Assembly: GCA_040756875.1 (NCBI GenBank)
Contig: JBFLYH010000001.1
Location: forward strand, 896,001-960,000
DNA: 64,000 nucleotides
Reading direction: 5' to 3'
Origin: a candidate division FCPU426 bacterium
Lineage (GTDB): Bacteria > Oederibacteriota > JAAXVQ01 > JAUVAV01
Shown here: positions 3,391 to 27,007 of the stretch, piece by piece
How positions within the stretch are numbered: position 1 is the first letter of the stretch
How the letters are laid out: the number at the start of each line of letters is the position of its first letter
The notes under the pieces: generated by a model
Seen by the model: the letters and a program-made list of their open reading frames with translations, nothing else
Database searches by the model: none
Told to the model about the DNA's origin: nothing
Program-made: the position numbers and the translations under genes

Positions 3391-3529
3391 TGCTTTTCGG
3401 CCAGCGCAAAATCTAACAGAGTGCTGAAAAACAGAAATATCTTCCGCTGGCGCCCTATTATCCCTTAAAAAGCTCCTGATTTTCCAAGGAATATTCAACG
3501 CAGCGCGGGCAACGATAGCCATCAGCCTG

Positions 3530-5050: not shown

Positions 5051-5133
5051 GCCTTGGCCCTCCCCCGTTATGGATGTGCTTGGACTATCCTAATATAGAA
5101 GCCCGCAACTTTCCAGTTTCATCATCGCCATTC

Positions 5134-5949: not shown

Positions 5950-5970
5950 AGCCGCCGCACCCTGAGGAGG

Positions 5971-6540: not shown

Positions 6541-6608
6541 CCTCCCGATAAACTCGGGTTATTTTAGCACAAAGTCAGACTAGTGAAAGGCGAAAATCCG
6601 GTCCCAAT

Positions 6609-6647
6609 AATAAAAACGCCGCGCGGCCCAAATGACCGCGCGGCGTC
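6609..6647 (-). terminator. Intrinsic terminator downstream of hppA
   Basis: GACGCCGCGCGG-tcatttggg-CCGCGCGGCGTT followed by TTTATT on the minus strand. Confidence 0.75.
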
Positions 6648-6660
6648 GGGAAAGCCCGGA

Positions 6661-9105: not shown

Positions 9106-9291
9106 TCTAGCCTCCCTAAATTGGTTTGTGGAGCCCCGCGGGCCGAAAGGCCCGCGGTACTTACTTCCAATCCTGCGTTGAACTGTTTTTAGCAGGCGAC
9201 ATCCCCGACGCAGAGCACTTCATCATTTTTCACCGGGCAAGCCCCGGGTTTCCTGCGGAGGGGAAAGAATCGGACCCCAAATTGAGGCACT

Positions 9292-9319
9292 ATTATGAAC
9301 ACCCGGAGCGAGTTGTCAA
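9292..9319 (-). promoter_or_regulatory. Putative sigma70 promoter of hppA
   Basis: TTGACA-N16-CATAAT on the minus strand, about 185 nt upstream of the start codon. Confidence 0.45.
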
Positions 9320-9367
9320 ATTATTTTTCAGGCGGAACGGCGGGAAGATGCCGAAAGCGTTCCGGAT

Positions 9368-11092
9368 TCACGCAGGTTTTCGTTGCTGCCCTGTCCGCGC
9401 GCTTCCCCGCCTTAACAGCGTCTGCCGTTGCCGCCTGCGTTCCTGATGCGTACGGGGCACGGCCAGTTTTTTCCGGGTCCAGGGGTTTTCGCCTGTGGCA
9501 TACATGACGCCGGCCAGGGTCATGGGCAAGGGGATGAAATCCTGCATCTGTTCTACGCGCAGCCCCAACCGTTTGGCTTGCACAGCCGCCTGTTTCATGC
9601 CGGCGGCGTCGGCGCCGGGAAAAGAAGCGATGAAATAGGCCGTCAGCAGGCCGCGCTGGCCCGAGCGGGTGCAGGCCGCCTGATACGCCCGCACAAAACG
9701 CTCAAACACTTCCCATGGCGGCTTGCGCATCAAGGCCAGCACTTCGGAATCAGCGTGTTCAGGGGCGACTTTCAATGCACCCGAAACATGCCCGCCATGC
9801 ACCAAACCGGAAAGGTATCCGGGATCGCAAAGCGCCAGGTCGTAACGGATGCCCGAGGCCACGAAGACGTGCCTGACCCCGGGGATAGCCGCCGCTTGTT
9901 TCAGCAGTTTCAGCTGGGCCGCGTGGCTGGTCTCCAGGTGGCGGCACACTTCGGGCACCAGGCACGAGGGCCGGCTGCACGGCCCGTGCGGCCGCGAACA
10001 ACGCAACCCGTACATGTTCGCCGTCGGGCCGCCGAGATCCGTGAGGGTGCCGTGGAAATCCGGCCGGGCCGCCAGGCGGCGCGCTTCGGCCAGAACTGAC
10101 TCCGCGCTGCGGGACTGAATCACCTTGCCCTGGTGCAGCCCCAGGGCGCAAAAACTGCAGCCGCCGAAGCAGCCGCGGTGCGTGATGATCGAATGGCGCA
10201 CCGGTTCAAGCGCCGGAACGGGTTCGGCGTATGACGGGTGCGCCTCCCGGGCGAACGGCAAACCGTAGATCTCGTCCAACTCCGCCGCGCCGAGCGGCCG
10301 GGAGGGAGGATAAACGGCCACCCAGCGTTTCCCGTGCGGCTGTGCGATCACTCTCGCCGGATGGCCTTCGCGGGCGCGCTCCTCGTCCGTTGCGGCCCGA
10401 GTCAATAAGCGGCGGTCCTGAACCAAGTCCTCATAGGACGGCAGCATAACCAGGCCCGGATCCCCGGGAAGGCTGGCAACGACCGCCGCAGTGCCCGGAA
10501 TGCCGGCCAGGTCCGACTCTTGATCCAGCCGGCGCGCGATCTCAGCAACCGCCAGTTCGCCCATGCCGTATACGATCAGGTCCGCTTTGGCGTCCAGCAG
10601 CAGGGACCGCCGGACGCGGTCCTCCCAGTAATCGTAGTGCGCCAGCCGCCGCAGGCTGGCTTCGATGCCGCCCAGCACCACGGCCAGGCCGGGAAAAGCG
10701 CGTTGGATGAGATTGGCGTAGATGATGGAAGCCCGGTTGGGCCGCCGCCCGTGCGCGCCGCCGGGCGCGTAGGCGTCGTCGCGACGGAGTTTCTTGTTGG
10801 CTGTGTAATTGGCGACCAGGGAATCCATGGCGCCGGCCGTGATGCCGGCGAACAAGCGGGGGCGTCCCAGGCGGGTTATTTCCTGTGGTTGTTTCCAATC
10901 CGGCTGGGCGATGACGCCCGTGCGGAACCCCCGGCTGACCAGGTACCGGCCGATAACCGCCGTTCCGAAGCTGGGATGGTCCACATAGGCATCGCCGCTT
11001 ACCAGCAGAACATCGAGTTCATTCCATCCCAGGCGGCGCATTTCCTCCCGCGTCATGGGCAGAAAGCCGGGTTGTTTCAAGGAACGGGTCAT
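9368..11092 (-). CDS. YgiQ/UPF0313 family radical SAM protein
   Basis: FLPMTREEM..LGW, GDAYVDHPSFG, GGIEASLRRLAHYDYW, HRGCFGGCSFC (CxxxCxxC), DLGGPTANMY. Confidence 0.93.
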   Translation of the reverse strand: MTRSLKQPGFLPMTREEMRRLGWNELDVLLVSGDAYVDHPSFGTAVIGRYLVSRGFRTGVIAQPDWKQPQEITRLGRPRLFAGITAGAMDSLVANYTANKKLRRDDAYAPGGAHGRRPNRASIIYANLIQRAFPGLAVVLGGIEASLRRLAHYDYWEDRVRRSLLLDAKADLIVYGMGELAVAEIARRLDQESDLAGIPGTAAVVASLPGDPGLVMLPSYEDLVQDRRLLTRAATDEERAREGHPARVIAQPHGKRWVAVYPPSRPLGAAELDEIYGLPFAREAHPSYAEPVPALEPVRHSIITHRGCFGGCSFCALGLHQGKVIQSRSAESVLAEARRLAARPDFHGTLTDLGGPTANMYGLRCSRPHGPCSRPSCLVPEVCRHLETSHAAQLKLLKQAAAIPGVRHVFVASGIRYDLALCDPGYLSGLVHGGHVSGALKVAPEHADSEVLALMRKPPWEVFERFVRAYQAACTRSGQRGLLTAYFIASFPGADAAGMKQAAVQAKRLGLRVEQMQDFIPLPMTLAGVMYATGENPWTRKKLAVPRTHQERRRQRQTLLRRGSARTGQQRKPA

Positions 11093-11107
11093 GGGCAGGC
11101 CGGGCGG

Positions 11108-11815
11108 TCAATAAAAATCGAAGCCGATGTCCAACAGCACCTGCCAGCGCTGGTCCTGGAGATAGGTGTCCGGAATGGCGTCAAAACTCATGGCGTTGAA
11201 AACGCGGTCATAATAGAAATCGTTCACCTTGGCCTGGTAGAACGTGTAGCGGAACTTGAGGCCGTAGGAAAACAGCATGTTGCCGAGAGGCACATAACGG
11301 CTCAACCCGGTTTCCGCGTATCCGCCCCAGCCAAAGGTCCAGCGGGGCGTATACCCGTCGATTTCATCGAGCCCGGCCTCCGCCTCGCCGTAATAGCTGC
11401 CGCCGCCGGCCAGGCTCGCCACCCAATCCGTCCCGGGCAGCTGGTAATACAGCCGCGGCCCGAAAAACCAGGCGTAAAAATTTCCGCCCGTGCTCTCGCG
11501 GTCGCCGTAGTCACCGGTGGAGGGGTAATAGACGTACACCTGGTTTTTCATCCGCTCCGTGATGCCGGTATAACCGTAAATACCGCCCACTTCCAATCCC
11601 AGCCACGGCAGGGGTTTGTATCCGATCACCGCATCCAGAGCCAGCCCGCCTCCCCAGATCTCGGAGATTTCTCCGGCAGGCTGCATATAGCCTGCGCCCA
11701 GGTGCATGGTGATCCCGGGCTGCAGAAGCGCGTCCTCGGCCCCGGCCGGACGGACGGCCAAAAGCGCCAGACTCATTCCCAACGCCAACCGCTTCGCCAG
11801 CAACACCTTTTTCAT
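11108..11815 (-). CDS. Outer-membrane beta-barrel protein
   Basis: Signal peptide MKKVLL...AGA, alternating aromatic/Gly beta-strands, C-terminal IGFDFY; start chosen after the AAGGGGG RBS. Confidence 0.7.
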   Translation of the reverse strand: MKKVLLAKRLALGMSLALLAVRPAGAEDALLQPGITMHLGAGYMQPAGEISEIWGGGLALDAVIGYKPLPWLGLEVGGIYGYTGITERMKNQVYVYYPSTGDYGDRESTGGNFYAWFFGPRLYYQLPGTDWVASLAGGGSYYGEAEAGLDEIDGYTPRWTFGWGGYAETGLSRYVPLGNMLFSYGLKFRYTFYQAKVNDFYYDRVFNAMSFDAIPDTYLQDQRWQVLLDIGFDFY

Positions 11816-11989
11816 CGTTCCCCCTTGGTGGCCTTCCCGCCGTTTCCCCGGAAAAGCGGACATTAGTATATCACAGGGAATGGTCTCCCGGCAGGAATCC
11901 TCGGCGCGCCAAAGAGCCTGCGGACCGGAACGAGGTTTTTTTCAATGCAGCAGTTGGCATTCACGGTTTTTTCATTTACAATACCGGCC

Positions 11990-13297
11990 ATGAACGACCT
12001 TCTGCACCCGCATGCCAAGCGCAATACCGAAAGCCTCATCCAGCACATACAATCCACGCGCAAGGAACGCACCATTCTGTTCACGGACATCGAACATTCG
12101 ACCCGTTTCTGGTCCCACCACGGCGACATCAAAGGCCGCCTGATGGTGGACCGGCACAACTGGCTGCTCTTCCCTATCATCAAGCACTTCGGCGGCTGGG
12201 TCGTCAAAACCATCGGCGATTCCATCATGGCGGCATTTAAAGATCCCGACCAGGCCATGCAGGCCGCCATTGCCTTCCAGCAGATGCTGGAACGCGAACG
12301 CCGGGCCAATCCCGATTTCACCATCCAAATACGCATCGGCCTGCACAGCGGCGCCACCCTGGTCGAGCACAACGATGTATTCGGCGACGTGGTGAACATT
12401 GCGGCCCGCGTGGAAAGCCAGGCCGAGGGCGGGGAGATCCTGCTGTCCGCCGAAACCCGCAAGCACCTCGACCGGAAAAAATACGCCCTGGAAGACCGGG
12501 GCGAATTCATGCCCAAGGGCAAAACCAAAGCCTTGCAAGTGTACCTGTGCCGCTGGCAGGAGGCGCCGGACCTGCTGGCGCCCATCCACGTTTCCACCCG
12601 GCTCCCGCTGGTTCCCCGCCAGCGCTTCGAAATTCTGCTCTATGCCGTCTCCAGCCTGGCCTTGGCCGTCTTCCTGGTTTGGCGCTATTTGCGCTTTCTT
12701 TTGAGCGAAAACGAAACCATCTCCCTGATGTTGCTCAACCCCGGAACTTTTTGGTGGGAATATCCGCTGCTGGTTTTGCTCGGCTTGAGCCTGGCAGCAG
12801 GCGTTTATTATGCGGCCTTTCGTTTGAAAAAATTCCCGCATACCCTGTTGAGAAGCCTGAAAGGCGGTTTCGGTTTTTTGGCGGCGTTTCTGTTGGGACT
12901 GGGACTCTTCAGCCTGATGCCGGGAGCGCCGGGCCACTACCTCCGGACCCCTCTGGCCGCATCCAAGCATTTGTTCGTCAAAGCCCTGCTGCCGGATACG
13001 CCCGTGTATCGCGTCCCGGCCATCGGCGGCGAGATCATCAAGCATTACCAGCCCGGCCAGCTGCTCCTGCTCGCGGACGTGAAAACCAACGGGCCTGTCA
13101 CCTGGAACAAAGTGCTGATCGGCCCCGGCCGCTACGGCTGGACGCCCCGGGTGATGCCGCCGGACATCGGCGTCCCGGCCAAGCGGGTGACCCTCACGGA
13201 TAAATTCACCTTCCGCATCCGCGACATTTATTCCCTGGTCCTGGGCTTGGGCGGTTTTGTTTGGGGTTTCCTCACCTTCCGCCTGCGCCCGGCGTGA
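11990..13297 (+). CDS. Class III adenylate/guanylate cyclase with C-terminal TM helices and SH3-like domain
   Basis: ILFTDIEHST, KTIGDSIMA, RIGLHSG, DVFGDVVNIAARVE; hydrophobic segments downstream. Confidence 0.88.
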   Translation: MNDLLHPHAKRNTESLIQHIQSTRKERTILFTDIEHSTRFWSHHGDIKGRLMVDRHNWLLFPIIKHFGGWVVKTIGDSIMAAFKDPDQAMQAAIAFQQMLERERRANPDFTIQIRIGLHSGATLVEHNDVFGDVVNIAARVESQAEGGEILLSAETRKHLDRKKYALEDRGEFMPKGKTKALQVYLCRWQEAPDLLAPIHVSTRLPLVPRQRFEILLYAVSSLALAVFLVWRYLRFLLSENETISLMLLNPGTFWWEYPLLVLLGLSLAAGVYYAAFRLKKFPHTLLRSLKGGFGFLAAFLLGLGLFSLMPGAPGHYLRTPLAASKHLFVKALLPDTPVYRVPAIGGEIIKHYQPGQLLLLADVKTNGPVTWNKVLIGPGRYGWTPRVMPPDIGVPAKRVTLTDKFTFRIRDIYSLVLGLGGFVWGFLTFRLRPA

Positions 13298-13968
13298 TCT
13301 TCGCAATACAGCCAGCATAAGCTGACCACCCAGTCCGCGCTGCCGAACCACTTGCCCTGAAATCTTCTCCCCCGGGGGAAATCCCGGCCCAGGTCCTCGT
13401 TCAGGACGAACTCAAAATGATCCGCAGTCACGGGCGGGAGCAGGGACAGGGCCGGGAAGGAAAACCGCCTGCCCACGAGCGGAGACAGGAGTTTGAAGGC
13501 GCTTTCCTTCGCGCCGGCGAGGAAGAGCGGGCTCACGCGGCCGGGCGCCGAAAAAAAGTGCAGCCAGGCGAGTTCGTCCTCATTGGCGATCAGGGCCAGG
13601 CTGCCGGGGCTCAGACGCCGGGCGCGGCTTTCCAGGTCAATGCCCAGGGAACGATAACGCCGCGTGCCTGCGGCCACAGCGCACGCCGCTTGGGCGGCAT
13701 GGGCGATGCTTCCGCAAGTGCCCGCGGGCCAGGCCGGCGCGCCGGTCGCCCTGCTGGGCAGGGGCCGGGGCGCGATCCCCAGCGCGGACAAGGCGCGACG
13801 GGCGCACCAACGGCCGGTTGCGTACTCGCGGACCCGGGCCGGAACCGCCGCGGAGACAGCCGCCCGCTCTTCGGGCCGCAGCACCGCCGAAGTCTTAGGA
13901 GCGGGCGTGCCGCAGAAGTGTAGGCCGAGGGGCGCGAGAGTCCGCCTGAGACGCGAGAAGAAGTCCAT
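13228..13968 (-). CDS. 4'-phosphopantetheinyl transferase, EntD/Sfp-like
   Basis: R.REYATGRWCAR.AL, GAPAWPAG..GSIAH, LGIDLE, AKESAFK. Confidence 0.88.
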   Translation of the reverse strand: MDFFSRLRRTLAPLGLHFCGTPAPKTSAVLRPEERAAVSAAVPARVREYATGRWCARRALSALGIAPRPLPSRATGAPAWPAGTCGSIAHAAQAACAVAAGTRRYRSLGIDLESRARRLSPGSLALIANEDELAWLHFFSAPGRVSPLFLAGAKESAFKLLSPLVGRRFSFPALSLLPPVTADHFEFVLNEDLGRDFPRGRRFQGKWFGSADWVVSLCWLYCEDHAGRRRKVRKPQTKPPKPRTRE

Positions 13969-13977
13969 GCCTGCCGC

Positions 13978-14505
13978 CTACTCCAGAAAACACACTTCGC
14001 ACAGGGCGGCCGCGCAGATCCGGCCCGCGTAAATCACCTGCCCCTGCACGCTGGCCAGGTAAGGGTCCTGGGCGAGTTTCTTGACCACGACCATGACTTC
14101 CTGTCCGGGAAGCACGGACTCCAGGAAATGCGCGCCTAAAATTTTGGTGGCCCGGACCTTGAGGGGTCGGGGCTCGGCCGCGATCTCACGGCTTTGCCTC
14201 TCCAGGAAAGAATAGAGGCACAATCCCGCCTGACCGATCATTTCCACCTGCAGGGCGCCGGGATAGACCGGCAAGCCGGGGAAATGGCCCCGCAGGACCG
14301 GATCCCCGGGGTCAATGCGGCGGGAAGCGGCCAACACGGCCTGGTCCAGGTCCAACCCGATCAAGCGGTCGAGCAGAAGAAAGGGTTCGCGGTGCGGCAG
14401 GATGCGGCGGATGGCGGCCTGGTCGCAAGACCAGCCCTGGGTCAGCAGGTCCGGCGGGGCCAGGGGCTTCTTGCGCAGGGACTTGAGGATCGTCTCGGAG
14501 TCCAC
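13978..14505 (-). CDS. 3-hydroxyacyl-ACP dehydratase, FabZ-like
   Basis: ILPHREPFLLLD, GHFPGLPVYPGALQVEMIGQ; GTG start at 14505 just after the upstream stop (the ORF track extension to 15291 is spurious). Confidence 0.88.
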   Translation of the reverse strand: MDSETILKSLRKKPLAPPDLLTQGWSCDQAAIRRILPHREPFLLLDRLIGLDLDQAVLAASRRIDPGDPVLRGHFPGLPVYPGALQVEMIGQAGLCLYSFLERQSREIAAEPRPLKVRATKILGAHFLESVLPGQEVMVVVKKLAQDPYLASVQGQVIYAGRICAAALCEVCFLE

Positions 14506-14507
14506 GT

Positions 14508-15764
14508 TCAGGTCTTCAACCCCTTGGCGATGACGTCTTCGATGATGTTGCACGCCTGGTCCATCTCTTCCCGGGTCAGCTGGGCGGAGACCGAAATGCG
14601 GAAGCGGCGGGCATGGGCGGGCACGGCCGGGAAATCCACGGGCTGCAGGAACAGGCCGCGCTTCTGGATCTCCGTGGCCATCTGGAAAAGTTTTTCGCCC
14701 GAGGACCCGATGATGATCGGGATCACCTGGGATTCGGTCTCCCCCAGGTCCAGCTTCAGGTCCAGCAGGCGGCGCTTGAGATAGGCCGTGTTCTCCCAGA
14801 GCTTCTCCCGCAGGGAGGAATCGCGGGTCGCGACTTCGAGGGCCTTCATCAGGCCGGCCACAATCGCGGGAGCGGGCGCGCAGGAGAAGTGGAAGGGCGA
14901 CGCGTAGCATTTCAGGTAGCGGATGAGCCTGGCGTTGGAGCAGATGAACCCCCCCACCCCGCCGAAGGATTTGCTCAGCGTCCCAAAGCTGACCCCGACC
15001 TTGTGCTCCAAACCGAAATGCTCGCCCACGCCGCGGCCGCTCGGGCCGAACATCAGGGTGGAATGCGCCTCGTCCAGATACAGGCCGGCCTGGTGCCGTT
15101 CGCAGGCCTCCACCACGCCCGGCAGCTTCACCAGGTCCCCGTCCATGGAGTACACACCCTCCACGGCCACCAGCTTGCGCTTGCCCTTGCTCCGCTCCAG
15201 CATCTGTTCCAGGGAGTCCAGGTCGTTGTGCGCGAAGAAGAGCATCTTGGCGCCGGCCAAGGTCCCGCCGTCCACCAGGCTCTTGTGGCATTTTTCATCG
15301 AGGATGAATACGTCGCCCTTGCGCAGGATTCCCTGGATGGCGCCCATGTTCCCGCCCAGGCCGCTGGAAAAGAGGATGCAATCTTCTTTCTGCTTGAACT
15401 CGGCCAGCTGTTTCGCGAATTGGACGTGCAGGTCAAAAGTGCCGGAGAGAAGCGGCGCGCCTGAGGCTCCCAAGCCGTACTGTTCCAGGGCCTCGCGCGC
15501 GGCCTGGATGACCTCCGGATGAGTGGACAGGCCGAGGTAGTTATACGAGGTCAGGTTGATGACCTTGCGTTTTTTATGGTCGAGGTTGCTGATGATCTCG
15601 GTGGTGCTCCGGGGCGCACGCAGCAACTGCTGCTCGAAAAAGCTCAGCCCATACCCCACCTGCGGGTCCGCCATCCAGGCATCAAAGTCCTCGGGCGGAG
15701 CCAGCACGTCCGGATTGTCCGTGTAGTGGAAATCCGCCAGGCTGTATTTTAAGGGATTGTCCAT
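14508..15764 (-). CDS. PLP-dependent alpha-oxoamine synthase (serine palmitoyltransferase/AONS family)
   Basis: NLTSYNYLGL, FAHND, VEGVYSMDGD, DEAHS, GTLSKSFG (PLP Lys), RFRISVS. Confidence 0.92.
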   Translation of the reverse strand: MDNPLKYSLADFHYTDNPDVLAPPEDFDAWMADPQVGYGLSFFEQQLLRAPRSTTEIISNLDHKKRKVINLTSYNYLGLSTHPEVIQAAREALEQYGLGASGAPLLSGTFDLHVQFAKQLAEFKQKEDCILFSSGLGGNMGAIQGILRKGDVFILDEKCHKSLVDGGTLAGAKMLFFAHNDLDSLEQMLERSKGKRKLVAVEGVYSMDGDLVKLPGVVEACERHQAGLYLDEAHSTLMFGPSGRGVGEHFGLEHKVGVSFGTLSKSFGGVGGFICSNARLIRYLKCYASPFHFSCAPAPAIVAGLMKALEVATRDSSLREKLWENTAYLKRRLLDLKLDLGETESQVIPIIIGSSGEKLFQMATEIQKRGLFLQPVDFPAVPAHARRFRISVSAQLTREEMDQACNIIEDVIAKGLKT

Positions 15765-15774
15765 CCGCGGCTTC

Positions 15775-16020
15775 TTACCGGCTCTGGTTTTCCATGAATT
15801 TGTTCACCAGCTCGTCGATGGATTTGATCTCGGCCAGCTCGGACCTGGGTATTTTAATGTTCAGCTCCCGCATCGAACAGGAAACCACCTCGATGATGTC
15901 CAGGCTGTTGGCGCCAAAATCCTTCAGCGACCGCTTCGGGTCGAGGTCCGACTCCTTGAGGTCTTCCACGTTCTCCAAAATGTGCTTCTTGACGACTTCC
16001 AAAATCTGCGACCGATCCAT
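15775..16020 (-). CDS. Acyl carrier protein, AcpK-like (beta-branching donor type)
   Basis: GANSLD phosphopantetheine site and KIPRSEL...SIDEL C-terminus, resembling B. subtilis AcpK. Confidence 0.9.
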   Translation of the reverse strand: MDRSQILEVVKKHILENVEDLKESDLDPKRSLKDFGANSLDIIEVVSCSMRELNIKIPRSELAEIKSIDELVNKFMENQSR

Positions 16021-16073
16021 TCCATGCTCCTTAGTTTTTTTCGTCTCCCGGGTTCCAAAACCCGGGCGGCTTA

Positions 16074-16889
16074 TTATACAGGTTTTCCGGCTTTCCGGCT
16101 TTCATAATACCGCATCATGATGTTGTCCCGCAAGGAGACTCCGTAGTCCGCGGTGATGATTTGTCCGTTGACCGCGTCCAACAGGCCGCTGCACAGCCCC
16201 AAAACCGTCCGGCCGCACGCTTCGGGGGTCAACAGCATGTTTTCCGAAACCCCCTGGGCCCGCAGGTACTTGAAGAACTCCTCCCCGAAAATCATCTCGA
16301 AAGATTCGGTCCTTACCATGCCGAACCGGATGACGTTCACCCGGCTCCCTTCCTCGAACAAATGCGCGGACAGATACTTGGCGAAAAACTCGAGCAGGGC
16401 TTTGGAGGCCGCCACGAAGTCATAGCCCGGGTAGAAATGGTCTGGCCCGTCGCTGGAGATCCCCACCAGGTGCCGGGGATAGGCGCCGAATTTTTCTTTC
16501 AGCTTCCGGGCGTAGGCGACGAGCGGCCAGGTGCTGTATTCCAGGCTCTTGAAGAGGGTCTGCTTCTTGTACTCCTCCAGGGCCATGGTCCGCTGGGCAA
16601 AGCCCACGTTGCTGATGAAATAGTCCACGCGCGCTTCGCGCCCGGCGATCTCCGCCAGCAGGCGGTCCGTGTCCTCATCGCGGGAAACATCCGCCTCGAG
16701 CAGCACAGGTTCGGCCGCGCCCAGGCTCGCAAACTGCGCCAACACCTGTCCGGGGTCCGCAGAACCCCACTTATAGGTCAGGTAGCACTTCGCCCCGGCC
16801 TGGGCGAACTGCAGGCCCGCGGCCAGGCCGATGCCCTTGGTCCCGCCGGTAATGAGCGCCACTTTTCCAGCCAAGTCAATTTTCAGCAT
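16074..16889 (-). CDS. SDR-family enoyl-ACP reductase (FabL/FabI-like)
   Basis: TGGTKGIG, Y-x6-K motif YDFVAASK, VNGQIITADYG. Confidence 0.8.
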   Translation of the reverse strand: MLKIDLAGKVALITGGTKGIGLAAGLQFAQAGAKCYLTYKWGSADPGQVLAQFASLGAAEPVLLEADVSRDEDTDRLLAEIAGREARVDYFISNVGFAQRTMALEEYKKQTLFKSLEYSTWPLVAYARKLKEKFGAYPRHLVGISSDGPDHFYPGYDFVAASKALLEFFAKYLSAHLFEEGSRVNVIRFGMVRTESFEMIFGEEFFKYLRAQGVSENMLLTPEACGRTVLGLCSGLLDAVNGQIITADYGVSLRDNIMMRYYESRKAGKPV

Positions 16890-16896
16890 CACGGCC

Positions 16897-17646
16897 TCAC
16901 GCGGGGTAGGTTTCCTCGATCCGCTTCCGGGTCTCGGGATCGGCAAAGCACAGCCGGTGCATGCGGTCTTCCCCGGCCCGGGCTTCGGCGAGGAGGGCCT
17001 GTTTTTTCGCGCCGAGAGATTGTTTCAGTAAAAGCACAGATTGTAACCTTTTTTCGCTGATTTGCAAGGCCAGATTTTCCGCCTGGGCCATGACTTCCGC
17101 TTTAGGCAGGATGTAATTGATTTGGGTTCCCCGGCCTTCCAGTTCCCGGCCCTTGAAGCTTTTGGCCGTGTACATCATCTCGGCGGCGACATTGGGCCCC
17201 ATCAGTTCGGCCAGCAGGCGCGTGCAGCCCATGCCGGGCGTGAAGCCCAGGGACATGAAGACCGCGCCGTACCGGCTCTCCCTGGCCGCCACGACGAGGT
17301 CCGAACAGGCGGCCAGCACCAGGCCGCCGCCCACGGCGTGGCCTTCCATGGCCGCGATCACCGGGAACGGCATGCCCACCAGGCGTTCGGAGATCGCCAG
17401 GTCCTTCACGTGCACCCGCCCCTCGCACAGCGCGAGCAGGTCCTCTTTCTCCGCGCCCCCGCAGAACACGTCCGGCAGGCCGGACAGAATCAGCACTTTG
17501 GCCTTCCGGCTGCCGGCCAGCTTTTCCAGGGCGTCCAGCATGTCCCGCACGAACGCCTGGCTGAAGCGGTTCTTGGTTTCCGCGTCCAGCATCCTGAGAC
17601 GGGCAATGCCGTTCTCCGCGACTTCCGCCTGAAGCCGTTCGCTCAT
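16897..17646 (-). CDS. Enoyl-CoA hydratase-fold decarboxylase ECH2, PksI-like
   Basis: PVIAAMEGHAVGGG, FMSLGFTPGMG, EMMYTAKSFKGREL, C-terminal MH His; start at 17646 overlaps the ECH1 stop (ATGA). Confidence 0.87.
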   Translation of the reverse strand: MSERLQAEVAENGIARLRMLDAETKNRFSQAFVRDMLDALEKLAGSRKAKVLILSGLPDVFCGGAEKEDLLALCEGRVHVKDLAISERLVGMPFPVIAAMEGHAVGGGLVLAACSDLVVAARESRYGAVFMSLGFTPGMGCTRLLAELMGPNVAAEMMYTAKSFKGRELEGRGTQINYILPKAEVMAQAENLALQISEKRLQSVLLLKQSLGAKKQALLAEARAGEDRMHRLCFADPETRKRIEETYPA

Positions 17647-18467
17647 GATCCCCCCTGGGGCGCCAGCGGGTGCTTGGGCTGGTATTTGGAGAACCAGGAC
17701 GGCGTCAGGCCGTCTTCGAACGCTTGGATCGCGGCCAGGACCTCCGGGTCCTGGATCAGCTCCAGCAGCTTGGCCTGAGCCTTGGCGCTGGCCTCTTCCC
17801 GGGTCTGGCGCGCCAGCTGGCTGAAAAACCGCTTGGCCTCGGCCAGGGCCCGGGGCGAGGCCCGGAGCAGGGTCTTGACCACGGCCTTGGCGCCGGCCGC
17901 CAGCTGGGCCTGGCTGAAAACCTCGTCCACCAGGTTCACGGCCAGCGCTTCGGCGGCGTCGAGCCGCTTCGCGGTCAAGATCAAATACTTGAGGACCTGG
18001 GCCGGCACGCGCGCGCCGGCGAGGAACGGAATCACGTTGGCGGGAATGAGGCCCAGGATGACCTCGGAGAACTCGAAAGTGGCCCCTTCCGAGGCCAGCA
18101 CGATGTCGCACGCGCCTGCCAGGCCGATCCCGCCCGCCTTCACCGCGCCGTGCACCACCGCGACCACGGGTTTGGCCGAGTCCTGGATGGCGGCCAGCAG
18201 AGCCGTGTATTGCCCCACGGTTTCTTTCGCGAGGCCGGGATCAGCGGCGCCGGCCCGCACCAGGCTCAGGTCCATGCCCAGGCAGAAGGAATCGCCCTCG
18301 GCCCGCAGGACGACCACGCGCACGTCCGGGTCGGACGCGGCCCGGTTCAAGGCCGCCTGGAGCGACCCCAGACTCTCGTGGTTGAGCACGTTGCCGGCCG
18401 CGCCGTTGGTCAGCGTGACCACGGCCGCGCCGGAATCAACCTCGTACGCTGTCACGGCCACGTTCAT
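17643..18467 (-). CDS. Enoyl-CoA hydratase ECH1, PksH-like
   Basis: FCLGMD, GAVKAGGIG..ACDIV, FEFSEVILGLIPANV. Confidence 0.87.
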   Translation of the reverse strand: MNVAVTAYEVDSGAAVVTLTNGAAGNVLNHESLGSLQAALNRAASDPDVRVVVLRAEGDSFCLGMDLSLVRAGAADPGLAKETVGQYTALLAAIQDSAKPVVAVVHGAVKAGGIGLAGACDIVLASEGATFEFSEVILGLIPANVIPFLAGARVPAQVLKYLILTAKRLDAAEALAVNLVDEVFSQAQLAAGAKAVVKTLLRASPRALAEAKRFFSQLARQTREEASAKAQAKLLELIQDPEVLAAIQAFEDGLTPSWFSKYQPKHPLAPQGGS

Positions 18468-19707
18468 CGCTCCATTCGTAAGTTCGAACGAAATCCTTCA
18501 CCCCGGCGAGCACCAGATACCGTTGGCCGGCGTAGTGCCGGCCGTACCAATCGCCCAGCAGGCCGAAGTCCGGGGTCACATCCGGCTGCTCGATCATGCT
18601 TTCCCGGATGGTTTCGATTTGTTCGTACTCGGCAAAGCTCACTTCCCTGCGGCTGTCCAGGGCCTGGTCTAAATGCGGTCCGGGCACAGCCGCTTTGGCC
18701 CCGGGGAGAATGCGGGCGCTGTAGAATTCGCCGATCGCTCCGGACCCGTAGGTGAAAAAGCCAATCCGGTCTCCGGGCGCAACCGGCGCGTCGCCGCTGA
18801 GCAGGCCGGCCAGGCCGATGAAATTGCTGGCGCCATAGGTGCTGCCCACCCGCTGGGCAAAACGCAGGGAGGGCCAAACCTTGGCCTGGAAACTTTCCTG
18901 GACCTCGGCTTTTTTCCTGGGCCGCGCCAGGTTGCACAAGGTGCGGTGCGCCTGGAAGGCCATGCCCGGGAACGGCATGTGGTAGATGTTGTATTGGAAG
19001 TGCCGGTCAAAATCCACGGCCTCGGCGAAAGACTCCCGGTAGTGCGCGTACGCCCCTTCCAGGGCGTCCATGTAGCTGTAGAGGCTGACCTCGTTGTTGC
19101 CGGATTCATGCTTCGCGGTCGGCCGGAACGTGTCATAAATGTCCGTGGTCCAGGAGCCTTTGTGCTCCAGCTCGTATTCCACGACCCTGGGGGTGTCGCT
19201 GACCAGCACCGCGGCCGCGGCCCCGCCCAGGACGAATTCGTGGTCTTTCCCGAAATGCGTCCGGCTGAAGTCCGCGGCGATCACCAGGGCTTTTTTCCCC
19301 CGGTTCAGGCCCGCGGCGATCCAATTGACCGCCGTGTCCAAAGCCGCCACGCCGCTGTAGCACGCGTGCTTGGTCTCGTAATTCCTCACGTTCGGCGGCA
19401 GGCGCAGGGCCCGGTGCAGGTTGGTGCTGATGGGCTTGCCGAAATCCACGGAGCCCTCGGTGCCCACGATCAGCAGGCCGATGGACCGGCGATCCTCCTC
19501 GGAAAGCATGGGCTCGGCCGCGTTGGCGGCCATGGTCACCGTGTCCTCATAGGGGGGGTTGAGGGAGCGGGTGCGGATCAGGTAATTGTTCACCACCTGC
19601 TCCGGGTCCTTGCCCCGGGCCCGGGCCAGCTCGGCCTGCTGCAGGCAGAGCGAGCAGCCGTAGAGATTGATCTTTTCGATGCCGACCCTTGTCATCTTAT
19701 ACCCCAT
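18436..19707 (-). CDS. HMG-CoA/ACP synthase, PksG-like (start may be 19695)
   Basis: GTEGSVDFGKP (catalytic Glu), KHACYSG (Cys), YHMPFPGM (His), GDRIGFFTYGSG. Confidence 0.92.
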   Translation of the reverse strand: MGYKMTRVGIEKINLYGCSLCLQQAELARARGKDPEQVVNNYLIRTRSLNPPYEDTVTMAANAAEPMLSEEDRRSIGLLIVGTEGSVDFGKPISTNLHRALRLPPNVRNYETKHACYSGVAALDTAVNWIAAGLNRGKKALVIAADFSRTHFGKDHEFVLGGAAAAVLVSDTPRVVEYELEHKGSWTTDIYDTFRPTAKHESGNNEVSLYSYMDALEGAYAHYRESFAEAVDFDRHFQYNIYHMPFPGMAFQAHRTLCNLARPRKKAEVQESFQAKVWPSLRFAQRVGSTYGASNFIGLAGLLSGDAPVAPGDRIGFFTYGSGAIGEFYSARILPGAKAAVPGPHLDQALDSRREVSFAEYEQIETIRESMIEQPDVTPDFGLLGDWYGRHYAGQRYLVLAGVKDFVRTYEWSDERGRDSVRG

Positions 19708-19733
19708 TCATAATGTATAGATATTCGCGACAT

Positions 19734-19761
19734 GTAGGGGCGTTCAATTGAACGCCCCTAC
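19734..19761. repeat. REP-like perfect palindrome
   Basis: GTAGGGGCGTTCAATTGAACGCCCCTAC, a 28-bp perfect inverted repeat with GTAG/CTAC ends. Confidence 0.8.
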
Positions 19762-19800
19762 GATCATGGCTCATCGAGACATCTTCGCGGCGGATCAACC

Positions 19801-20541
19801 TTACGGCGCGTAGGTCAGGCCGCCGGCCACGCGGATGACCTCGCCGTTGATGAACGCCGCTTCGTCCGAGATCAGGAAGTTCACCAGATTGGCGATGTCC
19901 TCGGGTGCGCCCACTTTTTTCTGCGGGCAATGCTGCAGCCAGAAAGCGCGCAGGCTCTCGGCCAAATTGTCCCGCGTGAGGTCCGTGGGCACATAGCCCA
20001 CGGTGACCACGTTCGCGGTCACGCCTTTGGAACCGTATTCCTTGGCCAGGGTCTGGGTCAGGCCGATCAGCCCCGCCTTGCTGGCCGCGTAATTGGCCTG
20101 CCCGCTGCAGCCGGCCTCGGCCAGGGAGGAAATATTCACGATCCGGCCCTTGCGGTTGGAGAGGAAATGCATGAGCAGGCCGCGGATCACGTAAAAGGGT
20201 CCGGTGAGGTTCGTGGCGATCACCTCGTCCCACTCCTCGTTGCTCATGAGCGCGGCGGCCTGGTTGCGAACCACAGCCGCGTTGTTCACCACCGCCCCCA
20301 CGTCCCCAAAATCCCCGAGCACGGTTTCGACGGTCTTTTCCACCTGATCCGCCTGCTTGACGTCCAGTGGGTAGGCCCGCACCACGGACCCCGGAGCGAG
20401 CGTCCGGGCCTGGGCCAGCGTCTCTTCGGCGGCCTTCGCGTTCTGCGCGTAGGTGAAGGCGCAGCCCAGGCCGGCCTTGGCCAGGCGGAGCACGATGGCC
20501 CTGCCGATTCCCCTGGACCCGCCGGTCACGAGCGCGTTCAT
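19801..20541 (-). CDS. 3-oxoacyl-ACP reductase, FabG-like
   Basis: TGGSRGIG, VNNAA, GRIVNISS, GQANYAASK. Confidence 0.92.
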   Translation of the reverse strand: MNALVTGGSRGIGRAIVLRLAKAGLGCAFTYAQNAKAAEETLAQARTLAPGSVVRAYPLDVKQADQVEKTVETVLGDFGDVGAVVNNAAVVRNQAAALMSNEEWDEVIATNLTGPFYVIRGLLMHFLSNRKGRIVNISSLAEAGCSGQANYAASKAGLIGLTQTLAKEYGSKGVTANVVTVGYVPTDLTRDNLAESLRAFWLQHCPQKKVGAPEDIANLVNFLISDEAAFINGEVIRVAGGLTYAP

Positions 20542-21839
20542 ATTTTCCCCTCCACCTTCGCGAGCAGGGCGCAACAGTTCAGGCCGCCGAAGCCGAAGGA
20601 ATTTTTAAGCAGGTAGCGGACCTCGTGGTCCTGGGCCTGGTTGGCGCAGACGTCGAGGTCGATTTCCGGGTCGAGCTCGTCCACGTTGATGGTGGGATGG
20701 AGCCGGTTGTGGTTCATCTGCAGCACCGCGCCGATGGTTTCCACGACGGGCGCGGACCAGCACACGTGGCCGAGCATGGATTTCGGGGCGTTGAGCTTGA
20801 GCCTGTAGGCGTGCGGCCCGAAAGCCGCCTTGATGGCCCGAATCTCCTCCAGGTCGCCCTGGGGCGTGCCCGTGGCGTGGCAATTGATGTAATCGATCTG
20901 CTCGGGCTTCACGCCGGTCGCAGCCAGGAGGTCCTTGATCAGCCGCTCCTGGCTCTCGGCCGACGGCGCCGGGAGGTGGTTGGCGTTGGCGTTGGCTTTC
21001 ACGGCCAGGACCTCGGCGTAAATGCGCGCGCCCCGCTGCCGGGCAGCCGAGAGCTCTTCCAGAATGAGCGTGCCGGCCCCGTGGGAGGGCACGAAGCCGC
21101 ACCGTTTCCGGTCAAAGGGCCGGGAAGCGGCGGCCGGGTTCTGCTGGTACTCGGGCTTGACCACCACGGAATCCAGGTACGCCATGGCGTGGATGTCCGC
21201 GGCCGTCATGTCGAAAACCGCGCCGGCGACGACCGCGCGTTCGCATTCGCCCGTCGCCACGTCCCGGAACCCCTCGCGCAGGGCGATGTTGCCGCTGGCG
21301 CAGGCCGCGCCCACGGTAAAGGCCGGACCGCGCGCGCCCAGGACCTCGGTAACCGAGGCGGCGATGTTGGGGTCCAGGGCCTCCACGCCGAAGAGCGGAT
21401 CGATGTACAGGGGTTCGGCCTTGAACTGCTCGGAATTTTTCAGGATGTACCGGGAATTGAAATTATGCCCGGCCACCAGCACGCTGGTCGCGAACGGGTC
21501 GGCCTCCAGTCCGAAGAGGCCGGCATCCAGCCAGGCGCCGAGGCTGCAGAGCAGGGTGAGGCGGTTGGAAAAGGTCGCGGTCTTGAACAGCTTGGCGGTT
21601 TTCTTGTGAATCAGGGGTGGAAGGGATCCTCCCAGGCGCTCCAAGGCCGCTTTGGCGTTATAGTCCCCCAGGTCGCCGCCGATCTTGCACTCCACCTGCG
21701 AGAGGTCCAGCGAGGTCCAGACCTTGACGCCCGAGACGCCCCGGAGCAGTTGATCGTAATACCCCGCCAGGGTGTCCCCCAGGGGATTGATGGTCGCCAT
21801 TCCGGTGATCACCACGCGTCTCTTTCCGCTCGCCGCCAC
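20538..21839 (-). CDS. Stand-alone beta-ketoacyl-ACP synthase, PksF-like position but Cys-bearing
   Basis: VGAACASG, SRPFD, CHATGT, KSMLGH, NSFGFGG; GTG start overlapping neighbours. Confidence 0.9.
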   Translation of the reverse strand: MAASGKRRVVITGMATINPLGDTLAGYYDQLLRGVSGVKVWTSLDLSQVECKIGGDLGDYNAKAALERLGGSLPPLIHKKTAKLFKTATFSNRLTLLCSLGAWLDAGLFGLEADPFATSVLVAGHNFNSRYILKNSEQFKAEPLYIDPLFGVEALDPNIAASVTEVLGARGPAFTVGAACASGNIALREGFRDVATGECERAVVAGAVFDMTAADIHAMAYLDSVVVKPEYQQNPAAASRPFDRKRCGFVPSHGAGTLILEELSAARQRGARIYAEVLAVKANANANHLPAPSAESQERLIKDLLAATGVKPEQIDYINCHATGTPQGDLEEIRAIKAAFGPHAYRLKLNAPKSMLGHVCWSAPVVETIGAVLQMNHNRLHPTINVDELDPEIDLDVCANQAQDHEVRYLLKNSFGFGGLNCCALLAKVEGKI

Positions 21840-21842
21840 GGC

Positions 21843-23099
21843 TCACCCTTTGAACTTCGAGATGACGACCGAGGCGTTCTGGCCGCCGAACCCGAAACTG
21901 TTGGAGAGAAAATGGCCGACCTCGGCCTCGCGCGCCTGATTGCGCACCACGTGCAGGTGGATCTCCGGATCCTGTTCGAACTGATTGATGGTCGGGTGGA
22001 TGATGCCCTTGTCCACGGCCAGCAGGCCGGCGATGGCCTCCACGCCGCCGCCGGCGCCAACCAGGTGCCCGATCATGGACTTGGTACTGTGCACCGGAAT
22101 GTCCGGCGTGTGCTCCCGGAACACCTTGCCGATGGCGCGGCTTTCCGACAAATCGCCCAACGGCGTCGAGGTTCCGTGGGCGTTGATGAGATCGATGTCA
22201 CCGGGTTCGAGGCGCGCGCTTTCCAAGGCCAGGTTCATGGCCTCGACGGCGCCCCGCCCTTCGGGATGGGGCGCGACCAGATCGTGCGCGTCGCAGGTGA
22301 AGCCCCAGCCCGACAGTTCGCCGTAGATGCGGGCGCCCCGCCGGCGGGCGTGTTCCAATTCCTCCAGGCACAGAACCCCTGCGCCTTCTCCCAAGACAAA
22401 GCCGTCGCGGTCCTTGTCGAACGGCCGGCTGGCGGTTTCGGGCGAATCATTCCGCTCGGACAAAGCCCGGATGACTCCGAACCCCGCGAAACCCATGGTG
22501 TTCACCACCGCTTCAGCTCCGCCGGCCAGCATCGCGTCCGCCTCGCCCAGCTTGATCATCATGGCCGCGAGGCCCAGGGCGTGGTTGCTGGAAGCGCAGG
22601 CCGAATTGACCGTGAAATTAGGGCCCTGAAGTCCGTATTCCGTGGCCAGATAACCCGCCGCAGTATTGGGGATCGTTCCCACCACGTAAAATGGCGAAAC
22701 CGATTCCATGCCTTTTTGCAGGACCGTGCTCACGTTCGCAAACTGCACGCCCACCCCGGCGTCCCCGGTCCCGATGACCGCGCCAAAGCGGCGGGGGGCC
22801 CGGGCCACCTCGAGCCCCGAGTCCCTGAGCGCCTGCGCGCCCGCGATCTGGCTGAAAACAATGAAGCGGTCCAGGCGCCGGATCATCTTCGGGTGGAGAA
22901 AATAGGGGGCCAGGTCAGGCAGGTCCACTTCCCCGCCGATCCTGACCGGGAACCCGTCCAGGTCCGTGTGCCGGGCCAAGCGGATTCCGGAGCGGCCCGC
23001 AGTCAAATTCTCCCAGAATTCACCGATCGTGTGGCCGAGGGGATTGACCGTTCCCAGGCCGGTAATCACCACTCGCGTGGCATAAGGATCACGCCGCAT
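21843..23099 (-). CDS. fabF: Beta-ketoacyl-ACP synthase II
   Basis: NSACASS, SRPFDKDRDGFVLGEG, AHGTST, KSMIGH, SNSFGFGG. Confidence 0.9.
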   Translation of the reverse strand: MRRDPYATRVVITGLGTVNPLGHTIGEFWENLTAGRSGIRLARHTDLDGFPVRIGGEVDLPDLAPYFLHPKMIRRLDRFIVFSQIAGAQALRDSGLEVARAPRRFGAVIGTGDAGVGVQFANVSTVLQKGMESVSPFYVVGTIPNTAAGYLATEYGLQGPNFTVNSACASSNHALGLAAMMIKLGEADAMLAGGAEAVVNTMGFAGFGVIRALSERNDSPETASRPFDKDRDGFVLGEGAGVLCLEELEHARRRGARIYGELSGWGFTCDAHDLVAPHPEGRGAVEAMNLALESARLEPGDIDLINAHGTSTPLGDLSESRAIGKVFREHTPDIPVHSTKSMIGHLVGAGGGVEAIAGLLAVDKGIIHPTINQFEQDPEIHLHVVRNQAREAEVGHFLSNSFGFGGQNASVVISKFKG

Positions 23100-23138
23100 A
23101 ACGTCCTGCCCTTCTTCATCAGCTTATTGCGCGGAAGT

Positions 23139-23167
23139 ATATTGCCTGCCGTGGGCAAACCTGTCAA
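23139..23167 (-). promoter_or_regulatory. Putative sigma70 promoter of the lipid/beta-branching operon
   Basis: TTGACA-N17-CAATAT on the minus strand, about 40 nt upstream of fabF. Confidence 0.45.
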
Positions 23168-23419
23168 GCTTTAAGCCCGGTTCAGCCCACCATCCCGCAA
23201 ACCTCCGGGAGCCGAAGCCCGGCCGAAGGTCTTGCAGAAGGATTAAGCATGGCGGCTCGCGGGTATTGCCCGCGGTCCCTTCTCTCGGAACCCAATAGCG
23301 GCGATATCCGCCGCTGGTTTCGTTCTGCTGGTGTGGTTTTTTTTAAAAAGCATAGGCGAGGAGTTCTCACCGTCTTTTAACTTTCCACCTGCGGCCCGCC
23401 TGAACCGCCGTTGCCTGGC

Positions 23420-23983
23420 TCAGTTTTTACCGGCTTTGCCGAGCAACGCCGTCCGTTTGGCGATATCCGCCGTGCCGATTGCGGCCAACCCGTTTTCCTT
23501 CGCCCGGCCGAGGGACGCCTCGAATGCCTCCGCCGTCACATGCCCTTTGGGTTCGATAAAAAGCAATCTTCCGCCGGGTTTCAACGCCTGGCCGATCTCC
23601 CTGAAAAATCTCCCGTCGTCCGGCACTTCGTGCACCACGGCGACCGCAAAAGCGAAATCGACCTTTCCCTGCAGATCCCCGATCCGCAAAGAATCCGCGG
23701 CGCACACGCGCAGTTCGATCCTGTCCGAAAGGCCCGCTTGGGCCGCACGCTTCTGCAGGCCGGCGATCATCCCGGCTTGCAGATCAACGCAAATCACCCT
23801 GCCTTGCGGACCAGCCAGGCGGGCGGCAGGCAGGCTGAAAAACCCCATGCCGCACCCAGGCTCCAGCACAGTCATTCCCGGTTTGATGTGCGCGCCCAAC
23901 AACCGCCTCGGATTGAGCGCCAGCTTCCTGAGCGGATTGACCAGCCACCATCCCATGCTTGCCGGAAAAACGCGTTCTGCCAT
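23420..23983 (-). CDS. Class I SAM-dependent methyltransferase
   Basis: VLEPGCGMG, VDLQ, VHEV..., LKPGGRLLFIEP. Confidence 0.9.
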   Translation of the reverse strand: MAERVFPASMGWWLVNPLRKLALNPRRLLGAHIKPGMTVLEPGCGMGFFSLPAARLAGPQGRVICVDLQAGMIAGLQKRAAQAGLSDRIELRVCAADSLRIGDLQGKVDFAFAVAVVHEVPDDGRFFREIGQALKPGGRLLFIEPKGHVTAEAFEASLGRAKENGLAAIGTADIAKRTALLGKAGKN

Positions 23984-24176
23984 CGCATCCCCCTTGGCCT
24001 TTGATAACGCAACCCCTTGCCCTCAATCCCGCGTCCGAGTGTATCCATTTGCTCCACCGCGGTCAAAAACCCATTGGTCTTTATCAAATCCCGACCCTGG
24101 CATCCCTATTATAACCAACCGAAGGCAGTTTGACAGCCGCCAACTCGTCCCAGGCGGTTTTCCAAGCATTTTGGGC

Positions 24177-24203
24177 CTAAAGTATCCGGTAATTTGCCGA
24201 TGC
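24177..24203 (+). promoter_or_regulatory. Possible sigma28 (FliA)-type promoter of the che operon
   Basis: CTAAAG...GCCGATGC; spacing is one nt short of TAAA-N15-GCCGATAA. Confidence 0.35.
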
Positions 24204-24261
24204 TATATCCAGTTGCTCTTTTGCGGATACATATATATTAAAGCAACCGAGGTCTCCCAGC

Positions 24262-26415: not shown

Positions 26416-26479
26416 GAGCCAGAGCGGCTCCGCCACTTCTTACCGCCTGCGCGTGCAGGCAAGAAAGGATGGAATCATC

Positions 26480-27007
26480 ATGACTTCCGTAGGAACGATC
26501 GCGAACCAAGCTGTTTCTTCCGCCGAATCCAAAACCCACGAGCTCGGAGGCAAATATTTGTCCTTCCGGCTGGCGGGCGAGGAATACGGCCTCGAAATCC
26601 TCAAAGTCAGGGAGATCATCGGCCTGATGGAAATCACCCCGGTCCCCTGCACGCCCTCGTTCGTGCTGGGTGTCATCAATCTCCGCGGCAAAGTGATCCC
26701 GGTCACGGACCTGCGCAGCAAATTCCGCATGGCTCCGGCGGAGCGGACCGGTCAAACCTGCATCATCGTCGTGGATATGGGGCTGCTGGAGATGGGGATC
26801 CTGGTCGACAGCGTATCAGAAGTCCGCAATATATCCAGCGAAGCGATCGAAGCGCCCCCGAATTTCGGGACCGAGGTCAAGACCGACTTCATCCTCGGCA
26901 TGGGCAAACTCGCGGATCGCGTTACCATCCTTTTGGACATCAACAAGATCCTGACATCCGAAGAAATCAACACGCTGCAACCTCTGAGCGCCAAAAAAGC
27001 CGCTTAG
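26480..27007 (+). CDS. cheW: Chemotaxis coupling protein CheW
   Basis: [24 protein letters not shown]. Confidence 0.95.

Follow-up and report, generated by a model that had tools for sequence, protein, structure and literature searches.

The window analysed here is a stretch of 64,000 nucleotides from contig JBFLYH010000001.1 of a candidate division FCPU426 bacterium. It carries a block of 11 co-oriented genes on the minus strand (13228-23099, 9.9 kb) in which an HMG (3-hydroxy-3-methylglutaryl) synthase beta-branching cassette stands together with enzymes of fatty-acid-synthase (FAS) type and an alpha-oxoamine synthase (AOS). We examined the block with open reading frames (ORFs), Pfam and NCBIfam and recovered all 11 genes with the order, shared orientation and coordinates that a first-pass annotation, made from the letters of the sequence, had given for them. 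In the direction of transcription the genes encode FabF, KS2 (a second ketosynthase, KS), FabG, HMG synthase (HMGS), the crotonases ECH1 and ECH2, a short-chain dehydrogenase/reductase (SDR), an acyl carrier protein (ACP), the AOS, FabZ and a phosphopantetheinyl transferase (PPTase), with intergenic distances ranging from small overlaps up to 93 nt (Table 1). Starts of ECH2 and FabZ were set from the translations; the likely start of FabG is the ATG at 20541 and that of the SDR the Met at 16889. Promoter-like sites (3 versus 1.5 expected) and terminator-like sites (13 versus 12.3 expected) within 12800-24300 were uninformative.

Table 1. Genes of the block, in the direction of transcription, and the two genes flanking it.
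Feature	Position	Strand	Evidence
FabF-type beta-ketoacyl-ACP synthase II, extra paralogue	21843-23099	-	TIGR03150, 510.8 bits, cut-off 493.75 passed
KS2, second KS, in the PksF position	20538-21839	-	best NCBIfam match NF005490 (PksF-type model), 324 bits, cut-off 445 not reached
FabG-type 3-oxoacyl-ACP reductase	19801-20574	-	adh_short_C2 and KR domains
HMG synthase of the ACP-dependent polyketide (HCS) kind	18436-19707	-	Pfam HMG_CoA_synt_N and HMG_CoA_synt_C
ECH1, crotonase in the dehydratase position of the cassette	17643-18467	-	ECH_1, 141.7 bits
ECH2, predicted decarboxylating crotonase, PksI/CurF kind	16897-17646	-	NF005496, 261.7 bits, cut-off 215 passed
FabI/FabL-like SDR, presumed enoyl-ACP reductase	16074-16946	-	T. 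thermophilus FabI is best PDB match
Stand-alone ACP, donor (CurB/AcpK) kind	15775-16020	-	PP-binding domain
Pyridoxal-phosphate (PLP)-dependent AOS, subfamily like serine palmitoyltransferase (SPT)	14508-15764	-	Aminotran_1_2
FabZ-type 3-hydroxyacyl-ACP dehydratase paralogue	13978-14508	-	FabA domain
Sfp-type 4'-phosphopantetheinyl transferase (PPTase)	13228-13968	-	4PPT_N and ACPS domains
Guanylate_cyc protein, flank	11945-13297	+	
S-adenosylmethionine (SAM) methyltransferase, flank	23420-23983	-	

We determined the conservation of the block by an HMGS-seeded search of one-genome-per-species contigs, which yielded 44 related loci, and scored their gene content by tblastn with the proteins of the window. 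KS2, FabG, HMGS, ECH1, ECH2, SDR, ACP, AOS and FabZ were taken as nine core genes. All nine are present in 27 of the 44 loci and in every one of the 25 loci whose sequence extends 3.6 kb or more upstream and 5.6 kb or more downstream of HMGS. Where the downstream sequence extends 5 kb or more, the AOS is found in 29/29 loci. Seventeen loci are incomplete, 16 of which are cut by a contig edge; the Chloroflexota locus L042 is without SDR and FabZ although 7.4 kb of downstream sequence are available. Of the 25 well-flanked loci, 22 also have FabF, often in convergent orientation downstream of FabZ; the three Myxococcales loci are without it within their flanks. HMGS and AOS co-vary in their pairwise identities (Spearman 0.78 for 31 loci, the pairs not being independent), and no protein of the block is more conserved than the AOS, whose mean identity is 0.69. 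The block is a conserved unit, far beyond chance.

As labelled, the carriers are mostly Spirochaetota-type metagenome-assembled genomes, accompanied by four Aminicenantes, three Myxococcales, one Firestonebacteria and one Chloroflexota; among the Myxococcales are two cultured Enhygromyxa salina strains (L040 and L043) with a variant of the cluster. Orthologues of the AOS above 71% identity make up at least 120 clusters. Within the source phylum HMGS was detected in 8 of 99 genomes, namely the source genome, 6 of 10 others of its family and 1 of 4 of the sister family, with 0 of 84 elsewhere. This patchy distribution fits a transfer of the block between phyla.

The source genome, which is 100% complete and 3.22 Mb in size, shows nine KS matches, every one in an open frame of at most 811 aa, and a single AT (acyltransferase) domain, that of FabD in the plsX-fabH-fabD-fabG-acpP-fabF operon. 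Five cluster-bearing relatives are alike, with 30/30 KS matches in frames of at most 512 aa. No modular polyketide synthase (PKS) and hence no acceptor ACP domain in such an enzyme was found in these six genomes, and the 10-kb flanks of the 44 loci are free of type I PKS. The initial claim that the cassette works without a modular PKS is supported by these observations, and so is conservation of the genes as a set in the absence of a type I PKS, which had been put forward for checking; a PKS elsewhere in the genome alongside the cassette, named beforehand as the finding that would contradict the claim, was looked for and did not occur. HMGS, ECH2 and the ACP are homologous to parts of PKS cassettes, as would be expected if the genes were an ordinary trans-acting beta-branching cassette for a modular PKS encoded elsewhere, but the short KS frames, the one AT and the PKS-free flanks leave this explanation practically no room. 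The remaining KSs of the source genome are discrete pairs in two lipid-type clusters (C2:733997-743819, L045, and C3:11676-13516, L046). Genes of one of these clusters code for two CN_hydrolase proteins, for an acyltransferase and an SDR, and for a protein of 807 aa with a KS at its C-terminus; those of the other code for a lipid-A-type acyltransferase and an acyl-CoA dehydrogenase.

We then assigned the parts of the cassette. HMGS aligned over its full length to HCS structures only, and its PDB bit scores were 257 for CurD, 227 for VirC and 219 for PksG, compared to 215-180 for MvaS, consistent with the expectation that the enzyme is PksG-like rather than MvaS-like. Cys- and His-containing motifs, which we take to be those of the active site, are visible in the sequence. 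HMGS, ECH1, ECH2 and the ACP are each single-copy in the source genome. ECH2 scored 146 bits with PksI and 139.5 bits with CurF, the next match being at 79 bits, and its sequence is clearly of the PksI/CurF kind. Best PDB matches of ECH1 were generic crotonases (104.8 bits), PksH following at 73 bits, and on NF005498 it reached 139.5 bits with a cut-off of 250. A Trp following the Ser is a flag of acceptor ACPs; none of the orthologues of the cluster ACP (0 of 31) has it. The ACP scored 48 bits (E 1e-11) with CurB and 30.5 bits with the next structure, its best NCBIfam match, NF005502, remained below the cut-off (63.2 bits, cut-off 79), and identity to the AcpP of the genome is 34% over just 41 residues. 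CurB is the donor ACP that was co-crystallised with CurD, as stated in the accessible part of PMC11522927.

The second ketosynthase had been expected to be a decarboxylase of the PksF type, which was not borne out. The Cys-His-His triad is intact in the KS2 of the window and in 40/40 KS2 orthologues, as it is in 27/27 FabFs of the clusters; three of 70 KS family members shorter than 380 aa were dropped from these counts. KS0 enzymes have a Ser in place of the Cys. With the triad kept, KS2 is therefore not the non-elongating KS0 which belongs to the canonical cassette according to sections of PMC11522927 and PMC12560621, and the source of acetyl-ACP is therefore assumed.

Besides the cassette the block contains a set of FAS-type enzymes. 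FabG, FabZ and the SDR of the cluster are extra paralogues beside the plsX-fabH-fabD-fabG-acpP-fabF operon, and the cluster FabF is 48% identical to the housekeeping FabF. FabG reached 241.7 bits on TIGR01830 (cut-off 297.75) and is 41% identical to the housekeeping FabG; FabZ reached 71.8 bits on NF000582 (cut-off 113), its identity to the genome's other FabZ being 28%. The SDR scored 91 bits on the FabL model (cut-off 328) and 83.7 bits with the FabI of T. thermophilus, with the Tyr-x6-Lys aligned. It is also the best match to the FabI model in the source genome (56.5 bits), where no protein exceeded the cut-off of that model and the sole NMO (FabK) match was IMPDH; FabV searches were void, as their controls remained silent. 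FabG and FabZ are unneeded for the HMGS steps; that 25/25 well-flanked loci keep them argues for real elongation, and so for a lipid over a C5 amino-ketone.

The AOS gave its highest PDB score with the SPT of S. multivorum (272 bits), followed by ThAOS (238), ALAS (209), Kbl (207) and BioF (164-177). It passed no NCBIfam cut-off: 321.7 bits were reached on NF047600 (cut-off 640), 277 on NF047599 (cut-off 500) and 240 on NF047603 (cut-off 670). In an alignment with S. multivorum SPT the PLP-binding and catalytic residues His138, Ser185, Asp210, His213, Thr241, Ser243, Lys244 and Ser273 are retained; residue roles were taken from the accessible text of PMC10196870. At SPT Asn52 the AOS has Tyr in 31 of 32 sequences, at Ser81 Ala in 28 of 32, at Arg82 Pro in all 32 and at Met271 Asn or His in 28 of 32, and the catalytic His is preceded by Cys and followed by Lys or Arg in 29 of 32 sequences each. 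By these comparisons the cluster AOS is an SPT-like paralogue from a subfamily with its own conserved pocket signature. The earlier suggestion of a sphingoid-forming AOS that condenses an amino acid is upheld as far as the ranking of SPT above Kbl and BioF goes; serine as substrate is not assured, because the residues of the amino-acid pocket differ from those of S. multivorum SPT. The source genome also encodes a canonical SPT, which scored 410 bits with the S. multivorum enzyme and to which the cluster AOS is 41% identical. This canonical SPT is fused to a GNAT domain in a 795-aa protein (C3:188917-191196; L047:2885-5272, minus strand) that looks like a fusion of SPT and N-acyltransferase (ceramide synthase-like).

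We also considered whether the block might belong to primary metabolism, either to the synthesis of biotin from pimeloyl-ACP by a BioF or to that of mevalonate and isoprenoids. The AOS reached 328 bits on the bioF model TIGR00858 and HMGS 254 bits on the bacterial HMG-CoA synthase model, but the former score is below its cut-off of 426 and the latter is likewise below cut-off. The biotin pathway was rejected because bioB and a better BioF (403 bits) lie 1.6 kb apart on contig 3 (C3:127-131k). The mevalonate pathway was rejected because the genome has one HMGS and gave no match to HMG-CoA reductase (PF00368), the control being positive in five mevalonate organisms. With the cluster, in addition, occurring in just 8 of 99 genomes of the phylum, a role in primary metabolism is hardly credible.

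Further members of the cluster in related loci were found by clustering all ORFs of the loci. A FabD-like AT is situated directly upstream of KS2 in 20 loci and a protein of about 380 aa upstream of this AT in 17 of the 44 loci. Both precede KS2 in most Spirochaete-type and Myxococcales versions (e.g. L013:5746-7843 and L009:110-1243), and both are absent from the version in the window. The PPTase encoded in the cluster belongs to a second family in 13 loci and to that of the window in 6 loci. The protein of about 380 aa has no Pfam match of its own. Its score against the GNAT clusters of the Atlas is 0.98, proteins related to it bear the name GNAT N-acetyltransferase (names for it and for the AOS being generic only), and its paralogue in the source genome shows weak PF13480 and PF00583 matches. 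On these three grounds we assign it to the GNAT superfamily, and the domain fused to the canonical SPT in the source genome is of its family. Next to the stand-alone paralogue (C3:235398-236546), at C3 ~233.9-235.2k (L050:32-1300, minus strand), lies the gene of a metallophosphatase that carries a Por_Secre_tail domain, as used in type IX secretion sorting.

In Enhygromyxa salina an epimerase-family reductase and the GNAT are divergent from a block reading AOS-AT-FabZ-KS2-FabG-HMGS-ECH1-ECH2-SDR-SDR-ACP, and a GT4 glycosyltransferase follows the ACP. In strain SWB007 (L040) the rearranged cluster occupies 1670-16508, with the tandem SDR domains fused in one 576-aa ORF. Some Spirochaete-type loci have an extra SDR ahead of the GNAT. 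Genes for an N-acyltransferase and a reductase were not found in the operon of the window. The bacterial ceramide synthase bCerS is of GNAT nature. Bacterial ceramide synthesis requires SPT, an N-acyltransferase and a dehydrogenase, as described in parts of PMC11324152. In view of the neighbours in relatives, a ceramide-like end product, in some cases glycosylated, would be in keeping with the context.

Autoinducer synthases are among the members of the AOS family, and we therefore weighed a small diffusible product as well. In the manner of CqsA or LqsA, the AOS could release an amino-ketone, or a pyrazine or hydroxyketone signal derived from it, from a short branched acyl-ACP. In addition to the AOS pocket that differs from SPT and the cyclase gene that adjoins the operon in this genus, the 194 bits obtained on NF005526 point in this direction. 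That score is far below the cut-off of 428 and weaker than those on the SPT, Kbl and BioF models, however. Against a small product stand, too, the set of ketoreductase (KR), dehydratase (DH) and enoyl reductase (ER) kept in 25/25 well-flanked loci and the frequent FabF, and the genes for GNAT, reductase and glycosyltransferase near the cluster in relatives are in line with a membrane lipid. We consider such a signal improbable.

Taken together, we judge it rather probable that the operon encodes an assembly line of discrete (type II) enzymes whose product is an amino-ketone lipid, methyl-branched and sphingoid-like. We infer this product and, from family membership, all steps leading to it. 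The Sfp-type PPTase would activate the CurB-like ACP, and malonate would be loaded by FabD, or by the dedicated AT in the 20 related loci that have one. KS2 would decarboxylate and condense malonyl-ACP to give acetyl-ACP and acetoacetyl-ACP. The CurD-type HMGS would add acetyl-ACP to a beta-ketoacyl-ACP, and ECH1 and ECH2 would dehydrate and decarboxylate the product, respectively, to yield a beta-methyl-enoyl-ACP. If acetoacetyl-ACP is the acceptor, 3-methylcrotonyl-ACP would be formed and saturated by the FabI-like reductase to isovaleryl-ACP. FabF, FabG, FabZ and the reductase would then run ordinary elongation cycles. The SPT-like AOS would condense the acyl-ACP with an amino acid, freeing an iso-branched 2-amino-3-keto (3-ketosphingoid-type) lipid, which a GNAT N-acyltransferase and a reductase, encoded elsewhere in the genome or within the cluster in relatives, could convert to a ceramide-like lipid.

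Several observations weigh against this reading. ECH1 is not specifically PksH-like in sequence. The sole ACP of the cluster is of the donor kind, without the acceptor Trp, and the acceptor carrier could be the housekeeping AcpP. KS2 is not the KS0 of canonical cassettes, which makes the acetyl-ACP source an assumption. No other FabI-like enzyme was found in the genome, and the cluster SDR might also serve bulk fatty-acid synthesis. The AOS reaches none of the NCBIfam SPT cut-offs and has a changed amino-acid pocket with which serine is not assured as the substrate, and the source genome already has its canonical SPT-GNAT fusion. Position and number of the branches are not readable from the sequence.

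In a variant of this reading the same machinery acts other than at the chain start, either late on a long beta-ketoacyl-ACP, placing the methyl near the head group, or repeatedly, giving a multi-methyl chain. The acceptor of the curacin pair is acetoacetyl-ACP, and the likeness of HMGS and ACP to this pair therefore lends weak support to the starter route, which moreover provides exactly one role per gene. The Myxococcales loci that have no FabF within their flanks also speak against the variant. In its favour, two catalytically intact KSs are conserved and could serve two kinds of cycle, the acceptor is not fixed by sequence, and canonical cassettes act on long chains as described in portions of PMC12560621 and PMC7501309. 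On balance we regard branching at another site as unlikely, though less so than the diffusible signal discussed above. In a further arrangement the two KSs would alternate, KS2 acting with HMGS, ECH1, ECH2 and the ER, and FabF with the reduction steps. The result would be a methyl group at every fourth carbon and an isoprenoid-like, phytanyl-type chain, made in the polyketide manner without the mevalonate or methylerythritol phosphate (MEP) pathway and attached to an amino acid via a non-serine AOS. We hold this to be a very slight chance.

The genes next to the block were examined as well. A cyclase and a methyltransferase had been described as bounding the cluster; both genes exist at these positions, but neither belongs to the conserved block. 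By tblastn the methyltransferase was rejected as a cluster member, with 0 of 44 loci, and so was the cyclase, with 1 of 44 loci, only the closest one (L001). Beyond the cyclase, the minus strand encodes an H+-pyrophosphatase at 6661-9105 and, at 9368-11092, a radical SAM protein of the YgiQ type, and ORFs tested within 11108-11945 gave no Pfam match. On the other side a chemotaxis set is located on the plus strand, consisting of CheA (24262-26415), CheW (26453-27007) and a methyl-accepting chemotaxis protein with a Cache domain (27070-28800). Across the final 4 kb of the window (60001-64000) G+C drops from about 0.60 to 0.40-0.44, and this low-G+C end may be foreign DNA.

The cassette itself has well-known counterparts. 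The CurB/CurD/CurE/CurF set of curacin and the AcpK/PksF/G/H/I set of bacillaene likewise comprise a donor-type ACP, an ACP-dependent HMGS, a decarboxylating ECH2 and a crotonase at the place of ECH1, all encoded in one neighbourhood. The canonical cassette of this kind is defined in passages of PMC11522927, PMC12560621 and PMC7501309. Compared to these cassettes of modular PKSs, the present block has no modular PKS or acceptor ACP domain, the triad of its KS2 is intact, and it includes a full discrete KS/KR/DH/ER set ending in an AOS. An HMGS cassette that works apart from any type I PKS has precedent: fogacin of Actinoplanes missouriensis is made by a type II PKS with beta-alkylation machinery, according to the accessible text of PMC11522927, where it is cited, and seven orphan HCSs adjoin type II PKS clusters as given in a portion of bioRxiv 10.1101/509463. 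The latter might include the present type. The fogacin and orphan HCS systems are aromatic ones based on a KS and chain length factor (KS-CLF), whereas here a fully reducing FAS-like set and off-loading by an AOS are found.

The proposed starter chemistry resembles the myxobacterial isovaleryl-CoA route with MvaS, LiuC and AibA/B, in which acetoacetyl is converted via HMG, 3-methylglutaconyl and 3-methylcrotonyl to isovaleryl, the source of iso-branched starters. That route is CoA-bound and its decarboxylase is glutaconate-CoA-transferase-like; here the intermediates would be ACP-bound and decarboxylation would be carried out by an ECH2 of the PksI/CurF type.

For the releasing step, SPTs using a dedicated acyl-ACP have been described with Spt/AcpR/AasR of Caulobacter (parts of PMC9386255). 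The Caulobacter Spt system, which includes CerS and CerR, has an SPT-like AOS beside a dedicated ACP as well, and relatives of the present block add a GNAT and a reductase (compare sections of PMC9386255 and PMC11324152). Caulobacter loads the chain by an acyl-ACP synthetase, whereas here it would be made de novo on the ACP with branching, and the AOS forms a separate subfamily. In Pseudomonas fluorescens MYb115 an iterative type I PKS and an AOS, PfSgaAB, make sphingolipids (PMC12134224, accessible part), so that a dedicated polyketide/fatty-acid-type synthase likewise feeds an AOS with SPT activity. PfSgaAB is a type I megasynthase for which no HMGS cassette is mentioned in that part of the paper; the present system consists of discrete proteins and includes beta-branching.

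In the open-access literature we found no paper joining beta-branching with SPT or AOS, and no characterised cluster of this architecture, in agreement with the view taken at the outset. The main text of a paper on Black Sea sphingolipids (PMC11334938) mentions no Spirochaetes, Aminicenantes or HMGS. The combination of a discrete, fully reducing, HMGS-branched and AOS-released pathway is therefore undescribed as far as searched, each half having precedent.

If the proposed assembly line is true, the beta-branching cassette would not be confined to polyketide megasynthases but would also operate in a free-standing, primary-like lipid metabolism. Bacteria would be able to form branched chains with acetate as the sole precursor and without recourse to branched amino acids, and a second, de novo route would feed a condensing enzyme of the sphingolipid type. 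As the operon is widespread in uncultured anaerobes, its product could be a common environmental lipid. Should the two KSs alternate, the product would belong to a new class of lipids, and 'isoprenoid' or multi-methyl biomarkers of groundwater and anoxic sediments might derive from it. The cultured Enhygromyxa salina strains with their variant of the cluster make the question of the product directly testable.

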